Of a stretch of DNA of 64,000 nt, positions 2,600-33,532 are shown in pieces. Location of the stretch: positions 372,001 through 436,000 of the forward strand of contig NW_027590205.1 of the NCBI RefSeq assembly GCF_964213995.1, in the 5' to 3' direction. A program made the translations under genes and the position numbers. Source of the stretch: Mustelus asterias. Its lineage: Eukaryota. Position 1 is the first letter of the stretch, and each line of letters starts with the position of its first letter. The notes under the pieces were generated by a model. That model ran no database searches. It saw only the letters and a program-made list of their open reading frames with translations, and had not been told where the DNA came from.

Positions 2600-5418
2600 A
2601 TGGATGGGGACTGCAATGCACGGCATTGCAGAGGTGGGGTGGAGCAGGGTTTGAAATGTGTATACTTCAATGCCAGGAGTATTCGCAATAAAGTGGGTGA
2701 ACTTGCAGCGTGGATCAGTACCTGGGACTTCGATGTTGTGGCTATTTCAGAGACATGGATAGAGCAGGGGCAGGAATGGATGCTGCAGGTCCCGGGGTTC
2801 AAATGTTTTAGTCGAAGTAGGGAAGGAGGTAGAAGAGGGGGAGGGGTAGCATTATTGATCAGAGATTGTATCACAGTGTCAGAGAGGAGGTTTGATGAGG
2901 ACTTATCTGTTGAGGTAGTATGGGCGGAGATTAGAAATAGGAGAGGAGAGGTCACCCTGTTGGGAGTCTTTTATAGACCTCCTAAAAGTTCTAGAGAGGT
3001 TGAGGGAAGGATTGCGGAGTCAATCCTGCTTGGAGTGAAAGTAATAGGGCAATTGTTATGGGGGATTTTAACTTGACTAATATTGACTGGAATTGTTATA
3101 GCTCTAGCTCGTTAGAGGGGTCAGTTTTTGTTCAAAGCGTGCAGGAAGGTTTTTTGACTCAGTATGTAGACAGGCCAACTAGAGGTGAGGCTATATTGGA
3201 TCTGGTGCTGGGAAATGAGCCAGACCAGGTGCTAGACTTGGAAGTTGGTGTGCATTTTGGTGATAGTGACCACAATTCGGTTACGTTCACCTTAGTGATG
3301 GAAAGGGATAGGCATGAACCTCGGGCCAGTGGTTTTAGCTGGGGGAAGGGTAATTATGAGGCTATTAGGAGAGAATTAGGAAACATAGGTTGGACTAGGA
3401 GATTACAGGGACTGGGAACGTCCGACATGTGGAGTTTTTTCAAGGAGCAGCTACTGCGAGTCTGTGATAGGTATGTCCCTGTCAGGCAAGGAGGAATTGG
3501 TAGGGCTAGGGAACCGTGGTGCACCAAAAAAGTTTCTTTGTTGGTTAAAAAGAAAAAGGAGGCTTATGTTCGGATGAGACGTGAGCACTCGGGTAGTGCA
3601 CTAGAAAGCTTTAGATTGGCTAAGAGGGAGTTGAAGAGCGAGCTTAGAAGGGCTAAAAGGGGACATGAGAAGACTTTGGCGGATAGGGTTAAAGAGAATC
3701 CTAAGGCGTTCTATAGGTATGTCAAGAACAGAAGGTTGGTTAGGGCAAGTTTAGGGCCAGTTATAGATGGCAGAGGGAAGTTATGTGTGGAACCGGAGGA
3801 GATTGGTGAAGCATTGAACCAATATTTCTCTTCGGTGTTCACGCAAGGGGACATGAATATAGCTGAGGAGGACACTGGGTTGCAGGGGAGTAGAATAGAC
3901 AGTATTACAGTTGATAAGGAGGATGTGCAGGATATTCTGGAGGGTCTGAAAATAGATAAATCCCCTGGTCCGGATGGGATTTATCCAAGGATTCTCTGGG
4001 AGGCAAGAGAAGTGATTGCAGAGCCTCTGGCTCTGATCTTCAGGTCGTCGTTGGCCTCTGGTATAGTACCAGAAGATTGGAGGTTAGCGAATGTTGTCCC
4101 ATTGTTTAAGAAGGGGAACAGAGACTTCCCCGGGAATTATAGACCGGTGAGTCTCACTTCTGTTGTCGGCAAGATGTTGGAAAAAATTATAAGGGATAGG
4201 ATTTATAGTTATTTGGAGAGTAATGAATTGATAGGTGATAGTCAGCATGGTTTTGTGGCAGGTAGGTCGTGCCTTACTAACCTTATTGAGTTTTTTGAGA
4301 AAGTGACCAAGGAGGTGGATGGGGGCAAGGCAGTGGACGTGGTATATATGGATTTTAGTAAGGCGTTTGATAAGGTTCACCATGGTAGGCTTCTGCAGAA
4401 AATGCAGATGTATGGGATTGGGGGTGATCTAGGAAATTGGATCAGGAATTGGCTAGCGGATAGGAAACAGAGGGTGGTGGTTGATAGTAAATATTCATCA
4501 TGGAGTGCGGTTACAAGTGGTGTACCTCAGGGATCTGTTTTGGGGCCACTGCTGTTTGTAATATTTATTAATGATCTGGATGAGGGTATAGTTGGGTGGA
4601 TTAGCAAATTTGCTGATGACACCAAAGTCGGTGGTGTGGTAGACAGTGAGGAAGGGTGTCGTAGTTTGCAGGAAGACTTAGACAGGTTGCAAAGTTGGGC
4701 CGAGAGGTGGCGGATGGAGTTTAATGCGGAGAAGTGTGAGGTAATTCACTTTGGTAGGAATAACAGATGTGTTGAGTATAGGGCTAACGGGAGGACTTTG
4801 AATAGTGTGGAGGAGCAGAGGGATCTAGGTGTATGTGTGCATAGATCCCTGAAAGTTGGGAATCAAGTAGATAAGGTTGTTAAGAAGGCATATGGTGTCT
4901 TGGCGTTTATTGGTAGGGGGATTGAATTTAGGAGTCGTAGCGTTATGTTGCAACTGTACACAACTCTGGTGCGGCCGCACTTGGAGTACTGTGTGCAGTT
5001 CTGGTCCCCACATTACAGGAAGGATGTGGAGGCTTTGGAGAGGGTGCAGAGGAGGTTTACCAGGATGTTGCCTGGTATGGAGGGGAGATCCTATGAGGAG
5101 AGGCTGAGGGATTTGGGATTGTTTTCGCTGGAAAGGCGGCGGCTAAGAGGGGATCTTATTGAAACATATAAGATGATTAGAGGTTTAGATAGGGTGGATA
5201 GTGATAGCCTTTTTCCTCTGATGGAGAAATCCAGCACGAGGGGGCATGGCTTTAAATTGAGGGGGGGTAGTTATAGAACCGATGTCAGGGGTAGGTTCTT
5301 TACCCAGAGGGTGGTGAGGGATTGGAATGCCCTGCCAGCATCAGTTGTAAATGCGCCTAGTTTGGGGGCGTTTAAGAGATCCGTAGATAGGTTCATGGAC
5401 GAAAAGAAATTGGTTTAG
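2600..5418 (+). pseudogene. CR1 ORF2 (APE endonuclease + reverse transcriptase) with one frameshift near 3030-3060
   Basis: NARS, ISETW, YRPP in 2600-3076; GDFN, SDH, PGPDG, NYRPVSL, DFSKAFD, GVPQGSVLGP, FADD in the 786-aa ORF 3058-5418. Confidence 0.93.
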
Positions 5419-5535: not shown

Positions 5536-5608
5536 AGGCTCCAGTGAGACTTGAACTCTCGACCCCTAGTTTACAAAGCCAGTGCTTAAACCACTGAGCC
5601 ATGGAGCC
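5536..5608 (-). tRNA. tRNA-Thr(TGT), mutated; probable pseudogene
   Basis: Reverse complement GGCTCCATGGCTCAGTGGTTTAAGCACTGGCTTTGTAAACTAGGGGTCGAGAGTTCAAGTCTCACTGGAGCCT matches vertebrate Thr-TGT; mismatches in the D and anticodon stems. Confidence 0.8.
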
Positions 5609-9689: not shown

Positions 9690-11030
9690 TTCAGTAATAC
9701 AGAGACAGGGCCGAGTGCAACAATTATTTATACAGTACCTGCACTAGTATGAATGGAGGCTGAGTTCAGTTCAATAATTCTTGAGAGAAGGTCTAGTGTA
9801 TTAGTAACTAGCGTCGTACTTTCTAATATAAACAGAGACATGCAGCTGTAACAAAGAAAGATTTATTCTAATATCAGCGGAGACAATGTGCACAATAATT
9901 TCAACTGAGACAGGTTCTAGTGTAATGTAAACTCATATAGGTGCTATCAGAATATAGGGACATGATCTAGCGTGATATAAACAGAGATGTAGCCCAGTGG
10001 AATAAAAAGTGAGGCAATGCAGAGTAAAGTAATAATTGAGAGAGGATGATGTGCAAAATGAACAGCAGTATGGTTTAGCGCATAATAAAGGAGAGAACAT
10101 CAAACGTAATAAAACTGACACCGGGCCGAGAATAATTTCGTCTGATTCTGGGCATTGTATAATATAAAATGAGACAAAGCCTGACACAGTAATGTCAGAC
10201 CAAGGCCTTAGATTGATATAATCTTTGACGCGGCAAGTGCATCAATGAATGAAAAGTGTAATAAAACAATAATTACAGAGACAGGATGCTGTTCGCTATA
10301 AACATGGAGGTAGACTGGTGCAGGAGTGATTGAGATATTGTTGCTGCTTTTATATACGTGGCAGGTTCCAGCAATCATAGAAATCCTACAGTACAGAAAG
10401 AGGCCATTCGGCCCATCGAGTCTGCACCGACCGCAATCCCACCCAGGCCCTACCCCCATATCACTCCATATTTTATCCGCTAACCTACACATCCCAGGAC
10501 ACTAAGGGGCAATTTTAGCATGGCCAATCAACCTCACATCTTTGGACTGCGGGAGCAAACCGGAGCACCCGGTGTAAACCCACGCAGACACGAGGAGAAT
10601 GTGCAAACTCCACACAGACAGTGACCCAAGCCGGGAATCGAACCACGTCCCTGGAGCTGTGAAGCAGCAGTGCTAACCACTGTGCTACCGTGCAATAACT
10701 GAGACCGAGCCTCGTGTAATAAAAACAGTAACGTGTTCTGGTGCAGTATCAGAAGAGAGAGGGTCAAGTGACGTAACAACAGAGACATGGAGAATCATGA
10801 CATTAGCCGAGAATTAATTCCGTGCTGCCGTAACTGCCAGAATGCACGGTGCAATATCAACTCAGGCTTTGATCAGTATAATAACAACTGGGATTTTGAT
10901 GAGTACGGAATCAACTCAGAATTATTGTCATATTATCAGAAATAGGATTTCTTGTCATATAAACTGGCTCTAGTTTACGATGGGCAAAGCCTGAGTCCAT
11001 GGCAGCAATAATTGAGACAATCTCAGTTTT
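9690..11030. repeat. Highly diverged ~28-30 bp minisatellite (consensus approximately aataactgagacagg.ctagtgcaat), interrupted by a SINE
   Basis: Recurring a(c/t)(t/a)gagaca motif with semi-regular spacing (e.g. ~9700, 9830, 9903, 10170, 10275, 10697, 11010). Confidence 0.55.
10375..10692 (-). mobile_element. Full-length HE1-type SINE
   Basis: tRNA-like head (cacggtagcacagtggttagcactgctgcttcacagctcc...ggttcgattccc), body and CR1-like tail. Confidence 0.92.
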
Positions 11031-11497: not shown

Positions 11498-13990
11498 TCA
11501 TAGAGCATTTACAACAGTGGAGAAGGCCATTTGACTCATCGTGTATGTGTTTGCCCTCTAAGGGAGTAATTCATCCAATAACACTCTCTACCCCATAGTC
11601 CAGCATTTTGTTCATTTTCAGACACTAATTCAATCCCATTTTGAAACCATCAATTGGCGCTGCCTGCACCAGACTCTCAAACAGCACATTCCAAATCTGA
11701 GTCAGTCACTGCCTGAAAATGTTTTCCGTTATGTCTCCATGCTTCTTTTGCCAATTAACTTCGACCCGCACCCTCTGGTACAAGATCCTTCTCCCAGTTA
11801 ACGGTTCCTCTCTATCGACTCTCTCCAGACCACTTAGGATTTTGAATGCCTCAATAAGAACATAATAAGAACATAAGAACTAGGAGCAGGAGTAGGTCAT
11901 CTGTCCCCTCGAGCCTGCTCCGCCATTCAATAAGATCTTTTCGTGGACTCAGCTCCACTTAACCGCGCCGCTCACCATAACCCTACATTCCTTTACTGTT
12001 GAAAAATTTATCTATCCTTGCCTTAAAAACATTCAATGAGGTAGCCTCAACTGCTTCACTGGGCAGGGAATTCCACAGATTCACAATCCTTTGTATGAAG
12101 AAGTTCCTCCTCAACTCAGTCCTAAATCTGCTTAATCTGATTTTGAGTCCATGCCCCCTAGCTCTAGTTTCACCTCCCAGTGGAAACAACTTTCCTGCTT
12201 CTATCTTATCTATTCCCTTCATAATTTTATATGTTTCCATGAGAACTGCCCTCATTCTTCTGAACTCCAATGAGTATAGCCCCAGTCTATTCAGTCTCTC
12301 CTCATAAACCAGCCCACTCAACTCCGGAATCAACCTAGTGAATCCCCTCTGCACCCCCTCCAGTGCCAGTATATCCTTTCTCAAATAAGGAGACCAAAAC
12401 TGTACACAGTACTCCAGTTGTGACCTCACCAGCACCTTATACAACTGCAACATAACCTCGCTGTTTTTAAACTCCATCCCTCTCGCAATGAAGGCCAACA
12501 TTCTAATTGCCTTCTTAATTACCTGCTGCACCTGCAAACCAACTCCTTGAGATTCTTTCACAAGGACACCCAGGTCCCTCTGCAGAGCAGCATGCTGCAA
12601 TTTTTTACCATTTAAATAGTAGCCCATTTTGCTGTTATTCCTACCAAAATGGATGACCTCACATTTACCAACATTGTACTCCATCTGCCAGACCCTCGCC
12701 CACTCACTTAGACTATCTATATCCCTTTGCAGACTTACAGCATCCTCTGCACACTTTGCTCTGCCACTCATCTTCGTGTCGTCTACGAATTTTGACACAC
12801 TACACTTGGTCCCCAATTCCAAATCATCTATATAAATCGTAAACAATTGCTGTCCCAACAGTGATCCGTCAGGCACACCACTAGTCACTGATCGCCAACC
12901 AGAAAAACACCCATTTACCCCTTCTCTTAACTTTCTGTTAGTTAGCCAATCCTCTATCCATGCTAATACATTACCCGTAACACCGTGCACCTTTATCTTA
13001 TGCAGCAGTCTTTGGCGCGGCACCTTGTCAAATGCTTTCTGGAAATCCAGATACACCACATCCACAGGTTCCCCATTGTCCAATGTACATGTAACGTTCT
13101 CAAAGAATTCCACCAAATTAGTGAAACATGACCTTCCCTTCACGAACCCATGCTAAGATCACATCAGTAACTTCCTGTCAAGGAAAACAGTCCTAGCCTC
13201 TCCAATATATTCTTGTAATTGAAGTTTCTGAACTCTGGAACTATTCTTGTGTTTTTCCTCTGCAGCCATCCTGTTGGCTTTACATTCCTCCTTAAGTTTG
13301 GTGCCCCGAATTGGACGCAATATTTCTGTTGACTATTTTCCATTGCTTTCGACAGGTATGGCATAATTTCCTTGTTTCTGTATTCTTTTCCCGAATAGAC
13401 AAAGATTATTAACTATTTTATTTACTGCAGTCTCAACTGTCTTCCACCACGAATGATTTATTCACATATTCTCCCAGTTCCCTCGGCGTCGACACCCACT
13501 TTCATAGCGTTTTCATCATTTCCATTTGTCTCTTCACATTTTGCATAACAAAACTAAGCATGTAACTTTACTCTGCAATAAACTAAACCTCCGAATTGCA
13601 AGCCCATTGCACCAATTAGGTTTTCTTTCGTTCTAAAGTTCTGTATGATCTACTGATGGTTGGCAATGTTTCCAAGTTCTGCATCATTCACAGGTCTTGA
13701 AAATCTGACTTCCATACCAAGCTCTCGGTCATTACTGTGCCAGGAAGGTCAAGGGTCACATAACCTATTCCTGGCAACTTCACTACAAGCTTTGCTTAAG
13801 TCCGAAAAACAGCGACGAGTTGTTTTCTGGCACTCAGCCAATTTCCTGTCCATTGTGCTCCTGTCTATTTTATTCTCTGAGCTCCATATTTACTCACAAG
13901 GCTGTGGTGCGGCACAATATCACATGACCTTTGAACGCCCATTAAGAGAAATACCCTCACAAACCATCTCTGTTACTCAGCGTAAAACTC
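11498..13990 (-). mobile_element. Old CR1 with a younger CR1 (11856-13152) nested in it
   Basis: 386-aa RT ORF 11983-13143 (DFQKAFD, KFVDD) with (aagaacat)n tail; decayed CR1 sequence continues on both sides. Confidence 0.85.
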
Positions 13991-17284: not shown

Positions 17285-17788
17285 AGCTGGACGCAAGCTG
17301 CAGCAAATCGGCCTGTCCGCAATGTTCAACTGCTGCAGGTTCCAATGGTTAGACTGAGAGCACATGTCACTTAATTCAGGAAGATAACCGTTGCTTTCAA
17401 TCTGATTGCTCAAATTATCTTGAACTTCAAAAGTTAAAAGCGTTCTTCTGGCAAATATCTAAGGGAACAATGATTTCTGGCCATTCATTAATGCATCATT
17501 CTCATCTTCCTTCGACTAATCTCAACCAATTTTACTCAGCGATAAAAGCAAATTCCTGCAGATACTGGAATCGGAAACCAAACGAAAAAATGCTGGTAAA
17601 TCTCAAAACGTCTGACAGCACCTGTAAGGAGAGAAATGAACTGATGTTCGAATCCAGGTGACACTTTAACAAAGTTCATTGTACAATTGTACTCAGTATT
17701 TGTTTCAGTATTTAGTCTGAATGCATTATTTAACACATATGTCTTCATTATGAATTGTATACCTCTGAAATTCAATATCATAGAATTG

Positions 17789-20703
17789 CTCCTCCCTCTG
17801 GGGGAGGATGACCTCACTGGGCCTGGAGGTCTGGAGTGCTTATACTTAAATGCAAGGAGCGTAGCAGGTAAGACAGATGAACTGAGGGCCTTAATGCTCA
17901 CGAGGAATTTGGATGTGGTTGCGGTGACAGAAACTTGGTTGAAAGAGGGACAGGACTGGCAGCTGAATATTCCGGGGTACAAGTGTTTTAGGCGAGACAG
18001 AGGAGGGGCCAAAAGAGGTGGGGGAGTAGCAGTATTAGTTGGAGAGCATATGACAGCGGCGCAGAGGGACGACAATTCAGAGGGGTCGTGTAACGAGTCA
18101 CTCTGGGTGGAGCTTAGAAACAGGAAGGGCGCAGTCACTATGTTGGGGGTATACTACAGGCCCCCCAACAGCCCAAGGGAAGTGGAAGAACGGATATGTC
18201 AGGAGATACTGGATAGGTGCAGGAAAAATAGGGTTGTTGTAGTGGGAGACTTCAATTTCCCTGGTATAGACTGGAAATCGCTGAGAGCAGGGACTCTGAA
18301 TGGGGAGGAATTTGTAAAATGCGTACAGGAGGGTTCTTTGGAACAATATGTAGATAGCCCGACTAGAGAGGGGGCTATACTGGACCTCGTACTGGGGAAT
18401 GAGCCCGGTCAGGTCTTCAAAGTTTCGGTAGGGGAACATGTGGCAAATAGTGACCACAATTCTGTTAGCTTTAGGATAGTGATGGAAAAGGAGGAGTGGT
18501 GTCCCAAGGGTAAGGTGTTGGATTGGGGGAAGGCTAACTTTAGTGGGATTAGGCAGAAATTGGCAGCTCTTGATTGGGAGAGGCTGTTTGAGGGTAAATC
18601 CACATCTGGCATGTGGGAGTCTTTTAAGGAACAGTTGTTAGGGCTACAGGACAGGCATGTGCCTGTTAAAAAGAAGGATAGGAAGGGTAGGATTCGAGAA
18701 CCGTGGATAACCAGGGAAATTGAGGGACTGGTCAAAAAGAAAAGAGAGGCGTATGGTAGGTCCAGGCAGCTAAAAACGGAGGGAGCTCTGGAGGAATACA
18801 AAGAAAGGAGGAAAGAACTCAAACGGGGAATTAGAAGAGCAAAAAGGGGTCACGAAATGTTATTGGCAGACAGGATTAAGGAGAATCCCAAGGCATTTTA
18901 TTCATACGTTAGGAACAAAAGGGTTGTCAGGGAAAAAATCGGACCTCTCAGGGACAAAAGTGGGGAATTATGCTTGGAGCCCAAAGAAGTAGGGGAGATC
19001 CTAAATGAATACTTTGCGTCGGTATTCACAAAGGAGAGGGATGTGTTGACTGGGAGTGTCTCGGAGGGGAGTGTTGAACCGTTGGAGAAAATCTCCATTA
19101 CAAAGGAGGAAGTGTTAGGTTTGTTAGAGAATTTAAAGACTGACAAATCCCCAGGGCCTGATGGAATCTATCCAAGGCTGCTCAGAGAGACGAGAGATGA
19201 AATCGCTGGGCCTCTGACGCAAATCTTTGTCTCGTCACTGGACGCAGGTGAGGTCCCAGAGGATTGGAGGATAGCTAATGTGGTCCCGTTATTTAAGAAG
19301 GGTAGGAAGGATAACCCGGGTAATTATAGGCCGGTGAGCTTGACGTCCGTGGTGGGGAAGTTGTTGGAGAAGATTCTTAGAGATAGGATGTATGCGCATT
19401 TAGAAAGGAATAAACTCATTAACGATAGTCAGCATGGTTTGTGAGAGGGGGGTCATGCCTCACTAACCTGGTGGAGTTTTTTGAAGAAGTGACCAAAATG
19501 GTTGACGAGGGAAGGGCCGTGGATGTCGTCTATATGGACTTTAGTAAAGCATTTGACAAAGTCCCTCATGGTAGGCTGGTGAAAAAGGTTGGATCTCATG
19601 GGATAAAGGGGGAGGTGTCTAGATGGGTGGAGAACTGGCTTGGTCACAGAAGACACAGGGTGGTAGTGGAAGGGTCTTTTTCCGGCTGGAGGCCTGTGAC
19701 TAGTGGTGTTCCGCAGGGCTCTGTATTGGGACCTCTGCTGTTTGTGATTTATATAAATGATCTGGAAGAAGGTGTAACTGGGGTGATCAGTAAGTTTGCG
19801 GACGACACAAAATTGGCAGGACTTGCAGATAGTGAGGAGCATTGTCAGAAGCTACAGAAGGACATAGATAGGCTGGAAATTTGGGCAAAGAAATGGCAGA
19901 TGGAGTTCGATCCTGATCAATGCGAAGTGATGCATTTTGGTAGAAATAATGTCTGGAGGAGCTATATGATAAATGGCAGAACCATAAAGGGTGTAGATAC
20001 GCAGAGGGACCTGGGTGTGCAAGTCCACAGATCCTTGAAAGTGACGTCACAGGTGGAGAAGGCGGTGAAGAAGGCATATGGCATGCTTGCCTTTATAGGG
20101 CGGGGCATAGAGTATAAAAGTTGGGGTCTGATGTTGCAGATGTATAGAACGTTGGTTCGGCCGCATCTGGAATAGTGCGTCCAGTTCTGGTCGCCACACT
20201 ACCAGAAGGACGTGGAGGCTTTGGAGAGAGTACAAAGGAGGTTTACCAGTATGTTACCTGGTATGGAGGGGCTTAGTTATGAGGAGAGATTGGGTAAACT
20301 GGGTTTGTTCTCCCTGGAAAGACGGAGGATGAGGGGAGACTTAATAGAGGTGTATAAAATTATGAAAGGCATAGATAGGGTGAACGGTGGGAAGCTTTTC
20401 CCCAGGTCGGTGGTGACGTTCACGAGGGGTCATAGGTTCAAGGTGAAGGGAGGGAGGTTTAACACAGATATCAGACGGACATATTTTACACAGAGGGTGG
20501 TGGAGGCCTGGAATGCGCTGCCAGGCAAGGTGGTGGAGGCGGACACACTGGGAACGTTTAAGACTTATCTAGACAGCCATATGAACGGAGTGGGAATGGA
20601 GGGATACAAAAGAGTGGTCTAGTTTGGACCAAGGAGCGGCGCGGGCTTGGAGGGCCGAAGGGCCTGTTCCTGTGCTGTATTGTTCTTTGTTCTTTGTTCT
20701 TTA
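17789..20703 (+). mobile_element. CR1 LINE, ORF2 nearly complete (frameshift ~19441, stop 20173-20175)
   Basis: NARS/ETW/GDFN/SDH endonuclease motifs, RT motifs, (ttctttg)n tail. Confidence 0.93.
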
Positions 20704-27234: not shown

Positions 27235-27468
27235 TCTATCTGTTCTCCGCATGTCTGCTGGGTTTCCTCGGGTGCTGTGGCTTCCTCCAACAGACCAAAG
27301 ATGTGCGGATTAGGTGGATTGGCCATGCTAAATTGACCCCTAGTGTCAGGGAGATTATGTGTGCGGTTACGGGAATAGGGCCTCGGTGGAATTGTGGTCG
27401 GTACAGATTCGCTGGGCCGAATGGCCTCCTTCTGTACTGTAGGGGTTCTATGATTCTATGTTCTCTAT
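27235..27468 (+). mobile_element. HE1-type SINE, 3' part
   Basis: gggtttcctcgggtgct...ggccatgctaaattg...gggccgaatggcctccttctgtactgtagg. Confidence 0.85.
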
Positions 27469-27731
27469 AAGTATCAGTCTTTTCAGGTTGCCGTGTGTGT
27501 ACCTGTTTCCAATATGCGGCTGTGCTGTCCACGGGAGAGCACTCTCTGATCACTTATGAAAGATCACAATCCCTTTCTAAAGGAAGCGTCTGTTTGAAGA
27601 TGTAAAGATGGGCGGAGAGATGGAGTCACCTTGGACCTCATAACATCCCCCTGACTGTTTCAACATCTCCAATTGCAGATCTGATTCAGACAGTGATCAG
27701 TCTCTCTGTTTCTGCTGTTCAGACTCGAACC

Positions 27732-28203
27732 ATGGGGGTGAAACTCTGTCTCACTCTGGTTATTGTCCTGATTACAGGTCTGTCATTTTGAACTTCTGCG
27801 TGAAATCTGCCAGTCACCACATTCATTCCCCATTTCCATCTCGAGGGGATTATTCCATTGTTGTTACTCCTTCTAACCCACTGCGTGTCTGTTACCTATT
27901 TTCAGACATGAGTAACGGTGACTCAGTGTCCCAGTCAGGACCAGGTGTTGAAGCAGCAGAGGGTGAAGATTCAGCAATACCCTGCAGTTACTCGGGACAG
28001 AGTTTAACTGTACAACATTACTGTTCTGGTATCGCCAGTATACACACCGAGCTCCTCATTGACTGCTCAGAGCCGCGAATGTACGGGTCTCAAGGTTTTT
28101 TACATTGCAGCGGGAATCTCAACCTGAAACAAAGCACTTTTCACTTGCCCATGAAAGATTTGAAGGTGACAGACAACACCGAGTATTACTGTGCACTGAG
28201 AGC
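27732..28203 (+). pseudogene. TCR alpha/delta-type V segment 1: leader exon 27732-27777, V exon 27906-28203; ORF open but conserved Trp out of frame
   Basis: 46-nt leader MGVKLCLTLVIVLIT, GT-AG intron, GDSVSQ...IPCSYS, LFWYRQY in a shifted frame, DLKVTDNTEYYCALR, then RSS. Confidence 0.88.
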
Positions 28204-28242
28204 CACAGTGAATGAGGCTCTCGCGGGCCTCATACAAAATCT
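28204..28242 (+). promoter_or_regulatory. 23-bp-spacer recombination signal sequence of V1
   Basis: CACAGTG + 23 nt + ACAAAATCT. Confidence 0.92.
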
Positions 28243-28774
28243 GGCACAGGTCGATAATCAATGATTCATTGTCAGGACAACACATGGGGTTAAAAATCAG
28301 CGAAAATTTACTCATAGTGAACCTGACAATACAGTCCCGTCTAAGTGTTTTCCCTCACTGAGGTTACTGATTGTCACTGTTGGGAAGTTTGACATGTTTT
28401 TACTCATATTACTATCACATCAAGTCCAATCGCTCCCCGATCCTTTCACACAAACCCACAGATCTCCCAGGTGAACCATGTCATCAGACAGACCACACCT
28501 TTCAAAAGTGATCAAGTTTCAAAGGCAGACTCAGAGTTGTCACATGTTGAAGTTGCTGGTTAAAATTATTGACTGTAACATGTGTACTTTATAAACAAAA
28601 ACCCCCAGTTGCAAACAGTCGAGGTAACAATATTGGACGGATATTTTGCTGGAACTTAAAGTCCACAAATGCTGATGCGGTAAGTTATTTAATCAATTTC
28701 GGCTTTCACTCGAGGTGTCAGAACTGCTTTGTAGAAAGTTAAACAATTTTTATTTTGTTAGCTGCTAACGTGCA

Positions 28775-28864
28775 GGTTCGTTGGTCTAGGGGTATGATTC
28801 TCGCTTAGGGTATTTCGCCCCGTTAACATGCGAGAGGTCCCGGGTTCGAATCCCGGACGAGCCC
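28775..28864 (+). tRNA. tRNA-Pro(AGG) with an 18-nt intron (28811-28828)
   Basis: Removing TATTTCGCCCCGTTAACA after G37 gives a canonical vertebrate Pro-AGG (one U-G pair in the acceptor stem), intact A/B boxes, TTTT terminator at 28867-28870. Confidence 0.9.
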
Positions 28865-29169
28865 CGTTTTGACCGAAATATTGTGTTCGAAAGGAGATAT
28901 TTTGATTTATTTAAGGTGCATACGGCGGGATGGCTTTCTGCTGACTGGCTCCGAAAAAGAGTCATAAAGGCACAGAGTTTTACAGCACGGATAGAGCCCA
29001 CTGGGACACCCACATGGCAGGCGCGGACACCCATCTGCGCCTGCCACGTGACAGCTGGACGGGAAGCGTTAGTTCTGATTCTCGCTGCACAGATACTTCC
29101 AGAAATGCTGACATAACCCAGCATTTTCTGTTTTTATTTCAGATTTTGAAAGTCCGCAGTGTGCGGCAT

Positions 29170-29800
29170 TATATTAGACTTTGGGCTGACAAGTGGCAAG
29201 TAACATTCGCGCCAGACAAATGCCAGACAACGTCCATCACAAATAAGAGAAAATCTAACCACCGCCTCTTGACAGTCAATAGTTGTTCCATCACTGAATC
29301 CCCCATTGTTAACATCCTTACGGTTACCATTGACCAGATACTCAATTGGACTCGCCACATAAACACAATGGCTACAAGAGCAGGTCAGAGGCCAGGAATA
29401 CTGTGGCGAATACCTCACCTCCTGACTCCCCAGAGCCTGTCCACCATCTACAAGGCACAAGTCAGGAGCGTGATGGAATATTCCCACCTCGCCTGGATGG
29501 GTGCAGCTCCAACAACACACAAGAAGATTGACATCATCCAGGACAAAGCAGCCCGCTTGATTGGCACCACATCCTCAAGCATTCAATCCCGCCACAACCG
29601 ACGCTCAGGAGCAGCGATGTGTATTATCTAAAAGATACAGAGCGGCAATTTACCAACGATCCTTAGACAGCACCTTCGAAACCCACGACCACTTCCATCC
29701 AGAAGGACAAGGGTAGTAGACACATGGGAACACCACCATCTGTAAGTTCTCCTCCAAGTCACTCACCATCCTGACTTGGAATTATATTGCCATTCCTTAG
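29170..29800 (+). mobile_element. L2/CR1-group LINE 3' fragment
   Basis: WADKWQVTFAPDKCQ...YKAQVRSVMEYS...IQDKAARLI. Confidence 0.8.
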
Positions 29801-29884
29801 CATGGCCTTATTCTGTGGTGTACTCATTTTCTGATTTAGTGCGGACCTCACCCTGAGGCCGTGAACCGCAAAGTATTTTCTCAT

Positions 29885-30636
29885 TTCTGTCATCTCTCCC
29901 TCAATGTCAACAAAACGGAGATTGTCATTGACTTCAGAAAGCGTAGAGGAGAACATGCCCCTGTCTCCATCAAAGGGGACGAAGTAGAAAGTGTCGAGAG
30001 CTTCAGGTTTTTAGGTCTCCAGATCACCAACAGCCTGTCCTGGCCTCCCATGCCGACACTATAGTGAAGAAAGCCCATCAACGCCTCTACGTTCTCAGAA
30101 GACTTAGGAAATTTGGCATGTCAGCTACAACTGTCACCAAGTTTTACAGGTGCACCATAGAAAACATTCTTTCGAGTTGTATCACAGCTTGATATGGCTC
30201 CTGCTCTGCCCAAGACCGCAATAAACTACAAAGGGTCGTGAATGTAGTCCAATCCATCACTCAAACCAGCCTCCCATCCATTAATTCTGTCTACGCTTCC
30301 TGCTGCCTCGGCAAAGCAGCCAGCATTGTTAAGGACCCCACGCACCCGGACATTCTCTCTTCCACCTTCTTCCTTCGAGACAAAGATACAGAAGTCTGAG
30401 GTCACGTGCTAGCCGACTCAAGAACAGCTTCTTCCCTGCAGCCATCATACTTTTGAATGGCCATTACCTTGCATTAAGTTGATCTTTGTCTACACCCTGA
30501 CAGTGACTGCAATACCACATTCTGCACTCCCGTTTCCTTCTCTATGAACAGTACACTTTGTCTGTATAGCGCGCAAGTAAAAATGCTTTTCACAGCATAC
30601 TAATACGTGACAATAATAAATAAAACTAAATCAAAT
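29885..30636 (+). mobile_element. Rex1/Babar-like LINE 3' fragment
   Basis: LSLNVNKTEIVIDFRK, VESFRFLG, KAHQRLY.LRRLRKFG; 3' gtgacaataataaa tail. Confidence 0.75.
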
Positions 30637-32072: not shown

Positions 32073-32145
32073 CATCCCAGAAGTGACTCGAACACACGCT
32101 CCCTGGTTTAGGAAGCCAGTGCCTTACGCGTTAGGTTACTGGGAC
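32073..32145 (-). pseudogene. tRNA-Arg(CCT) pseudogene
   Basis: Reverse complement GTCCCAGTAACCTAACGCGTAAGGCACTGGCTTCCTAAACCAGGGAGCGTGTGTTCGAGTCAC...; D-loop GG lost. Confidence 0.75.
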
Positions 32146-33459: not shown

Positions 33460-33532
33460 GGGCCAGTGGCGCAATGGATAACGCGTCTGACTACGGATCA
33501 GAAGATTCCAGGTTCGACTCCTGACTGGCTCG
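33460..33532 (+). tRNA. tRNA-Arg(ACG), near-canonical
   Basis: GGGCCAGTGGCGCAATGGATAACGCGTCTGACTACGGATCAGAAGATTCCAGGTTCGACTCCTGACTGGCTCG; one T-stem substitution relative to the vertebrate sequence as I recall it. Confidence 0.9.

Follow-up and report, generated by a model that had tools for sequence, protein, structure and literature searches.

Within the window, by which we mean the whole 64,000-nucleotide stretch of DNA analysed here, positions 28775-28864 of the forward strand hold a tRNA-Pro(AGG) gene interrupted by 18 nucleotides. The 5' exon (28775-28810, +) runs from N1 to G37 and includes U32 (28805), the anticodon (28807-28809) and G37 (28810); the intron lies at 28811-28828 (+), between positions 37 and 38; and the 3' exon (28829-28864, +) runs from U38 to N73, as delimited by the sequence, by ARAGORN in intron mode and by comparison with intronless genes. 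A Pol III A box (28782-28792, +), identical in the intronless paralogs, and a B box (28843-28853, +) were read from the sequence, using the consensus motifs as we know them, and a TTTT run (28867-28870, +), the minimal Pol III terminator, was read in the same way. The preliminary description had proposed this arrangement of an 18-nt insert at 37/38 of an otherwise canonical tRNA-Pro(AGG), and the sequence and ARAGORN in intron mode agree on it. Compared with perfect intronless AGG genes the body shows two differences, an acceptor-stem U3·G70 wobble, whose position 3 is the single difference in the 5' exon, and a T-loop G. Both substitutions are compatible with the fold, and once the insert is removed ARAGORN draws an intact cloverleaf for the mature tRNA domain. 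U3 is characteristic of this copy's AGG subfamily and is, among AGG genes, a variant confined to the cassettes. The register of the insert can be slid by one base, and ARAGORN places it one base later. The insert is short and ends in TA...CA, with no spliceosomal GT-AG ends and no self-splicing core, and its ends vary within the family. A tRNA-Lys call, which arises when ARAGORN is run without intron mode, is false, and the gene is missed by Rfam at the gathering threshold. With its site at 37/38, an intact tRNA body, a pyrimidine at 32 facing a purine at -3 and a short length, the insert is, judged by sequence, a canonical tRNA intron of the TSEN type.

The gene sits in part of an amplified cassette (27275-30366, no strand assigned) that is ~89-99% identical to other copies over up to 3 kb and extends likely to the Arg-ACG gene at 33460; in several cassette copies an Arg-ACG gene is found ~4.7 kb from the Pro gene. 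Five other tRNA genes are present in the window, all intronless and most of them decayed, at 5536-5608 (-), 32073-32145 (-), 33460-33532 (+), 44093-44165 (+) and 44907-44981 (-). From their bodies we take these to be a Thr-TGT, an Arg-CCT-like gene, two Arg-ACG genes and a Val-like body with a TAG anticodon. The window also contains fragments of non-LTR retrotransposons with endonuclease and reverse transcriptase domains, at 3004-5418 (+), 17645-19444 (+) and 11983-13152 (-), and four SINE heads, near 10694, 15336, 35688 and 53500. The SINE presumably resembles the shark HE1 family, and we take the tRNA bodies to be of vertebrate type.

The preliminary description had also drawn a 4-bp anticodon-intron helix, formed by U32:A(-3), U33:A(-4), A34:U(-5) and G35·U(-6), next to a 3-nt C-A-U38 bulge at the 3' splice site. 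All of these elements can be drawn, A28826 at -3 being the predicted partner of U32 and positions -4 to -6 facing U33, A34 and G35. When the tRNA body is held fixed in the fold, probabilities of 0.36-0.39 are obtained for the first three pairs (0.36 for U32:A28826), but the fourth has a probability of 0.01 and does not stand; G35·U is improbable in this copy because G35-G37 favour the CCC run of the insert. The drawn helix (-22.9 kcal/mol) scores worse than both the open loop (-24.2) and a hairpin form (-28.2), the predicted fold puts the 5' splice site inside a weak hairpin, and the unconstrained fold of the gene is no better than those of shuffled sequences (z = -0.60). The strict bulge-helix-bulge of Archaea was considered and rejected, given the improbable fourth pair and the absence of an outer helix in the drawn register. 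Eukaryotic TSEN does not require it, according to the account in PMC8479045.

A DNA search of the host genome (3.68 Gb in 5313 contigs) returned 515 candidates, and the 40 that were scored were all full-length matches of 90-100% (40/40). An exact-core search of the whole genome, whose counts may run too high where haplotypes on small contigs were left uncollapsed, found an insert in 168 of 178 Pro genes. By anticodon, the insert was present in 60 of 63 AGG cores (3 without), in 89 of 95 TGG cores (6 without) and in 19 of the 20 CGG cores that follow the common pattern (1 without; 20 obtained as 115 minus 95), a shorter CGG pattern giving 23 with and 1 without. With reversed control patterns, no match was obtained in the host genome. 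Since 60 exact-core AGG genes carry an insert and the reversed control none, the AGG inserts cannot be put down to chance. Inserts also occur beyond proline: 66 of 67 exact cores of Arg-TCG have an insert of 13-22 nt at 37/38 (on C85, C102, C103, C130, C141, C155 and other contigs; loci L281-L291), each of the 11 intron loci fetched has G(-3) opposite C32, and one perfect intronless Arg-TCG gene was found, on C24. No insert was seen in 77 Arg-ACG cores of the host genome, and the contrast with Arg-TCG shows that the inserts are specific to certain families and not a general trait of the amplified region. In 200 kb of two cluster contigs we found 17 tRNA genes, with introns in Arg-TCG besides the expected Arg-TCT. 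Together, the introns of Pro and Arg-TCG span four anticodon classes and more than 230 genes. The intron-bearing tRNA-Pro family that had been proposed from a single gene is therefore wider than expected, taking in all three Pro anticodons (AGG, TGG and CGG) and Arg-TCG, and the insert, far from unique to one copy, has many paralogous counterparts among the Pro genes of the host genome. The standard position of tRNA introns is occupied by an insert in some nine of every ten proline tRNA genes and in almost every Arg-TCG gene, and this insert is likely cut out by the ordinary tRNA-splicing enzyme.

Numbers of this kind could in principle be largely an artefact of the assembly, with uncollapsed haplotypes and small contigs multiplying a handful of true loci. 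Unplaced contigs do hold many of the copies, and over 3 kb four copies match the window at 98.5-99.3% identity. However, single contigs hold many different copies (10 AGG and 15 TGG matches on C71, several per anticodon on C85), all 23 rows of the rate test described below are distinct, and haplotype doubling could at most halve the counts. We regard this explanation as the least probable of all those considered.

We then compared the inserts themselves. From 139 fetched loci, 118 Pro genes were extracted, 108 of them with inserts of 13-18 nt; this set comprises nearly all CGG genes and only a sample of the distinct TGG types, and misses 5 genes that are truncated or contain indels. The 108 genes carry 67 distinct anticodon/insert combinations, which fall into 11 lineages at an edit distance of 4. 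The register is unambiguous on both sides in 19 of the 67 distinct inserts, and all of these sit at 37/38. Over the 67 inserts, pairing is possible at 32:-3 in 60, at 33:-4 in 66, at 34:-5 in 55 and at 35:-6 in 65, that is, in 246 of 268 cells, against 96-143 when the register is slid by 1 or 2 bases. A purine occupies -3 in 60 of 67 inserts, compared with a frequency of 0.42 in the 5' parts of the inserts, and the base at -5 tracks the anticodon, being T in 24 of 25 AGG, G in 7 of 12 CGG and A or G in 24 of 30 TGG combinations. Pairing between 34 and -5 is found in 8 of 9 lineages with 18-nt inserts (permutation P = 0.0095, a value that overstates independence because relatedness reduces the lineages to about three independent groups). 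Divergence of the inserts is well illustrated on C19, where two single-copy AGG genes lie 1.7 kb from each other; their bodies are near-perfect, both have a T4 run, and the 18-nt insert of one is wholly unlike that of the other.

The main CGG lineage (L052-L069) departs from this geometry in that a U stands opposite U32 at -3, as seen in 17 of the 24 fetched CGG intron genes, and so lacks the pyrimidine-purine pair between 32 and -3; pairing nevertheless goes on from 33 to 35-37. Human TSEN is described as needing a pair at 32/-3 for the 3' cut (PMC8479045), and the U:U of this lineage should therefore hinder that cut. Most members also have a T at D-loop position 16, where the single intronless CGG gene has G, which makes this T a candidate marker of the spliced product. 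TGG-type inserts were found on CGG genes as well. Separately, L050 and L063 show Pro genes in pairs, at a distance of 1.4 kb, with nearly identical flanks and introns and the anticodons TGG and CGG, which we read as a recent anticodon switch. The suggestion that pairing of A34 in the precursor may couple splicing to I34 editing gains no specific support from these comparisons, because position 34 faces a complementary base in TGG and CGG genes too.

This regularity bears on the idea that the insert, instead of being a substrate for splicing, inactivates the gene or belongs to a tRNA-derived repeat, and was multiplied by copying. The host genome is rich in tRNA-headed SINEs, and most copies share multi-kb flanks, so that copy number reflects amplification; four flank families cover 95 of the 118 extracted Pro genes. 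On the other hand, 11 divergent lineages have their insert at one position with the -3 purine kept and the -5 base following the anticodon, the 94 cassette genes have full cloverleaf bodies and no SINE tail, one copy has lost the insert precisely (L301, see below), and Arg-TCG independently shows the same geometry, with C32 opposite G(-3). We therefore hold an inactivating insertion to be very improbable. Identity as a tRNA-derived SINE was likewise rejected, since homology between cassette copies extends for kilobases to either side of the gene and a SINE head lies within 60 nt in 0 of 94.

For an estimate of mutation rates across the cassette, 30 copies were picked by their upstream flank alone, thereby avoiding selection on the tRNA, and all 30 contained the gene. 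Seven were dropped (<80% identity in a 200-nt flank block), and changes were counted by parsimony on the remaining 23. Far flanks show ~0.29 changes per site. The exons have 0.19 changes per site (14 against 21.8 expected, P = 0.053), while the intron has 0.67 (12 against 5.5, P = 0.011), the inner 3' flank of 10 nt has 0.80 (8 against 3.1, P = 0.015, possibly inflated by an indel) and the inner 5' flank of 20 nt reaches 1.25 (25 against 5.8, P = 3e-9). Inside the intron, on the tree of the 23 copies, no change fell on positions -4 to -6 and a single one, between A and G, on -3. Transcribed tRNA genes are reported to be marked by conserved exons amid hypervariable inner flanks and introns (PMC6130373), and the inner 5' flank of the gene in the window (28755-28774, +) would bear this signature of transcription-associated mutagenesis. 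With flanks and intron hypermutated and an exon deficit at the edge of significance, the mutation pattern argues strongly for past transcription of the cassette copies and only marginally for purifying selection on the exons relative to the far flanks.

It could still be that the introns are real and were once spliced, and that the cassette copies, the one at 28775 included, are now mostly silent passengers while a few intronless genes do the decoding. Seven perfect intronless Pro genes with T-runs do exist on chromosome-scale contigs (AGG on C4, C10 and C17, CGG on C17, and three TGG on C3), and because these could suffice for the whole decoding of Pro, the animal may not depend on splicing its Pro precursors. 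The marginal exon deficit and the visible decay of neighbouring tRNA genes, in the window and in the cassettes, point the same way. The state of the copies differs between anticodons: a T4 run lies within 25 nt in 47 of 53 fetched AGG intron genes and in 10 of 31 TGG genes, and it is combined with at most one body change in 41/53 AGG, 9/24 CGG and 8/31 TGG genes, so that the many TGG copies without a near T4, like the majority of CGG copies, which have no U32 pair, would fit silence and the AGG copies would not. Hypermutation of the inner flanks and the intron but not of the exons, on a recent tree of cassettes, also speaks against silence, as does a likely retrocopy on C1899 that carries the trailer of the AGG cassette family. 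On balance we find it unlikely that the cassettes are mostly silent. Many copies are probably redundant and drifting, and we lean slightly towards the 28775 copy being active today.

We thus favour, with a probability of about 0.8, the reading that the 28775 gene belongs to a large Pro family and is likely transcribed by Pol III, spliced by TSEN and ligated by RtcB; transcription and splicing are what we infer from the DNA itself. Directed by the internal boxes, Pol III would transcribe the gene as far as the T-run, TSEN would bind the intact tRNA body and measure to G37, cutting after it, the U32:A(-3) pair would set the 3-nt bulge and with it the 3' cut before U38, and RtcB would join the exons into an ordinary tRNA-Pro(AGG). 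The enzyme steps of TSEN and RtcB are established knowledge (PMC10275265, PMC8479045). The family would be old, with inserts diverged beyond recognition on nearly identical bodies, and would owe its spread to the amplification of multi-kb segments, the cassettes, together with switches of anticodon. A circular RNA from the 18-nt intron is possible; in Drosophila, circles from introns <21 nt went undetected by RNA-seq for technical reasons, as described in PMC4536317.

The human families with introns are given as Tyr-GTA, Ile-TAT, Arg-TCT and Leu-CAA, with 28 intron-bearing genes among 429 (PMC10275265, PMC8479045). As portrayed in these sources, human TSEN introns resemble those found here in their site at 37/38, short length, pyrimidine 32:purine(-3) pair, 3-nt 3' bulge and variable intron sequence within a family, and human Arg-TCT and Leu-CAA likewise mix intron-bearing and intronless genes. 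Measured against the same sources, the host genome differs in the tRNAs concerned (Pro-AGG, CGG and TGG, and Arg-TCG), in a proximal pair that is U:A or U·G instead of C:G, and in number, with more than 230 genes, mostly in amplified cassettes, against 28. In yeasts, lineage-specific gain of tRNA introns, a patchy distribution and anticodon switching have been reported (PMC4090602). The patchy distribution is shared, and so is the passage of an intron to a new anticodon by a change of N34, here with the TGG-type insert on CGG genes; the setting differs from that described for yeasts in being a vertebrate-type genome in which intron-bearing and intronless genes have identical bodies.

Fungal tRNA-Pro introns exist, and older human annotations contain one low-confidence Pro-AGG gene with an intron. 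Our scan of metagenomes found at least 124 intron-bearing Pro genes in at least 120 loci; among the matches listed, 114 of 124 have the U32:-3 pair. These share with the host genes the core of the anticodon arm, the intron position and the U32:-3 pair, but none among the matches listed has the host acceptor stem and the intron sequences are unrelated. By their sequences, the metagenome genes indicate that Pro introns are common outside vertebrates, and not that they are homologous to the host introns. Intron gain and ancestral retention are both compatible with the evidence from the host genome, and since intron-bearing and intronless genes with identical bodies coexist there, a comparison of fish genomes could put gain against loss to the test.

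None of the papers that we found treats introns of Pro or Arg-TCG genes in fishes, although supplementary tables may list such genes. From its sequence features, then, this is an ordinary TSEN-type intron on tRNA families for which the vertebrate literature we found has no intron reports. Nothing in the mechanism is out of the ordinary, and these genes may already be flagged in routine tRNAscan-SE annotations that have gone undiscussed. What they add is a larger predicted set of TSEN substrates in a vertebrate-type genome, among them natural substrates with U:A, U·G and even U·U proximal pairs with which the rules of TSEN could be probed. More tentatively, and at somewhat less than even odds, a vertebrate lineage, likely the cartilaginous fishes, may use TSEN splicing of transcripts from amplified intron arrays to produce a large part of its tRNA-Pro and almost the whole of its tRNA-Arg(UCG), beside a few intronless housekeeping genes. 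If so, the mammalian set of four intron-bearing families would reflect reduction or be peculiar to a lineage, and the arrays could provide tRNA, under splicing control, at particular stages such as the germline.

Finally, Pro copies outside the cassettes appear to derive from precursor transcripts. Among 14 intron-bearing genes inspected as candidates for lying outside the cassettes, 8 have a SINE head within 60 nt and 1 belongs to a Pro-Arg-Thr chain that ends at one, compared with 0 of the 94 other intron genes. Several isolated copies have a few leader bases and the trailer up to the T-run in common with a parent gene, and then the SINE head begins at once. Fusions of Pro and SINE were seen with the intron (L100, L102, L046, L047, L048, L034, L113, L044, L123, L125 and L324) and without it (L130, L300, L306, L307, L308, L310, L321 and L323); L281 is an Arg-TCG example. 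In a rough tally drawn from different searches, the seven intronless genes account for about as many likely retrocopies as the ~160 intron genes. By analogy, these isolated copies are likely retroposed chimeras of pre-tRNA. Chimeric retrocopies of U6 and LINE-1 are reported to form after ligation by RtcB (PMC13247085), and the Pro copies would be like them in joining a Pol III transcript that ends at its T-run to the 5' end of a retroelement. They differ from the chimeras described there in that the first partner is an unprocessed pre-tRNA, sometimes chained, in that the second is mostly a SINE, and in that no target-site duplications were found. Since a search at 11 likely retrocopies gave no convincing pair of such duplications, insertion of a SINE behind dispersed tRNA genes could also account for the arrangement. 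Two chains were noted: L101 (G000:C14:65108335) joins Pro(TGG, with intron), an Arg-ACG-like sequence and Thr(TGT) at ~10-20 nt from one another, with a SINE head at the end, and L311 has a Pro running into another tRNA-like sequence. These are possibly pre-tRNAs that were ligated and then retroposed.

One copy resembles a spliced precursor. L301 (G000:C3:136697712) is a Pro-TGG that has lost the insert precisely and keeps a 4-nt leader and a 42-nt trailer. Its trailer scores 37/42 against those of intron-bearing TGG cassettes, compared with 20/42 for the best intronless gene and a maximum of 23 in 2000 shuffles, and the homology stops at the T-run, before a broken fragment of LINE-type reverse transcriptase. 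We consider L301 likely to be a retrocopy of a precursor that was spliced with its ends still immature, gene conversion from an intronless paralog being the alternative. It is one case among 24 intronless-type copies inspected (22 + 2), and it belongs to the TGG subfamily, not to AGG. L312 was rejected as a second such copy, its 4 extra bases at the junction being read as the trace of an internal deletion. Likely pre-tRNA retrocopies would thus amount to a fossil record of precursors, one putative spliced intermediate included. As a last observation, two copies, L113 and L130, the only such cases, lack their 5' part up to roughly one and the same point, close to where the D-loop ends, a pattern that a stop of reverse transcriptase at a modified base would leave.
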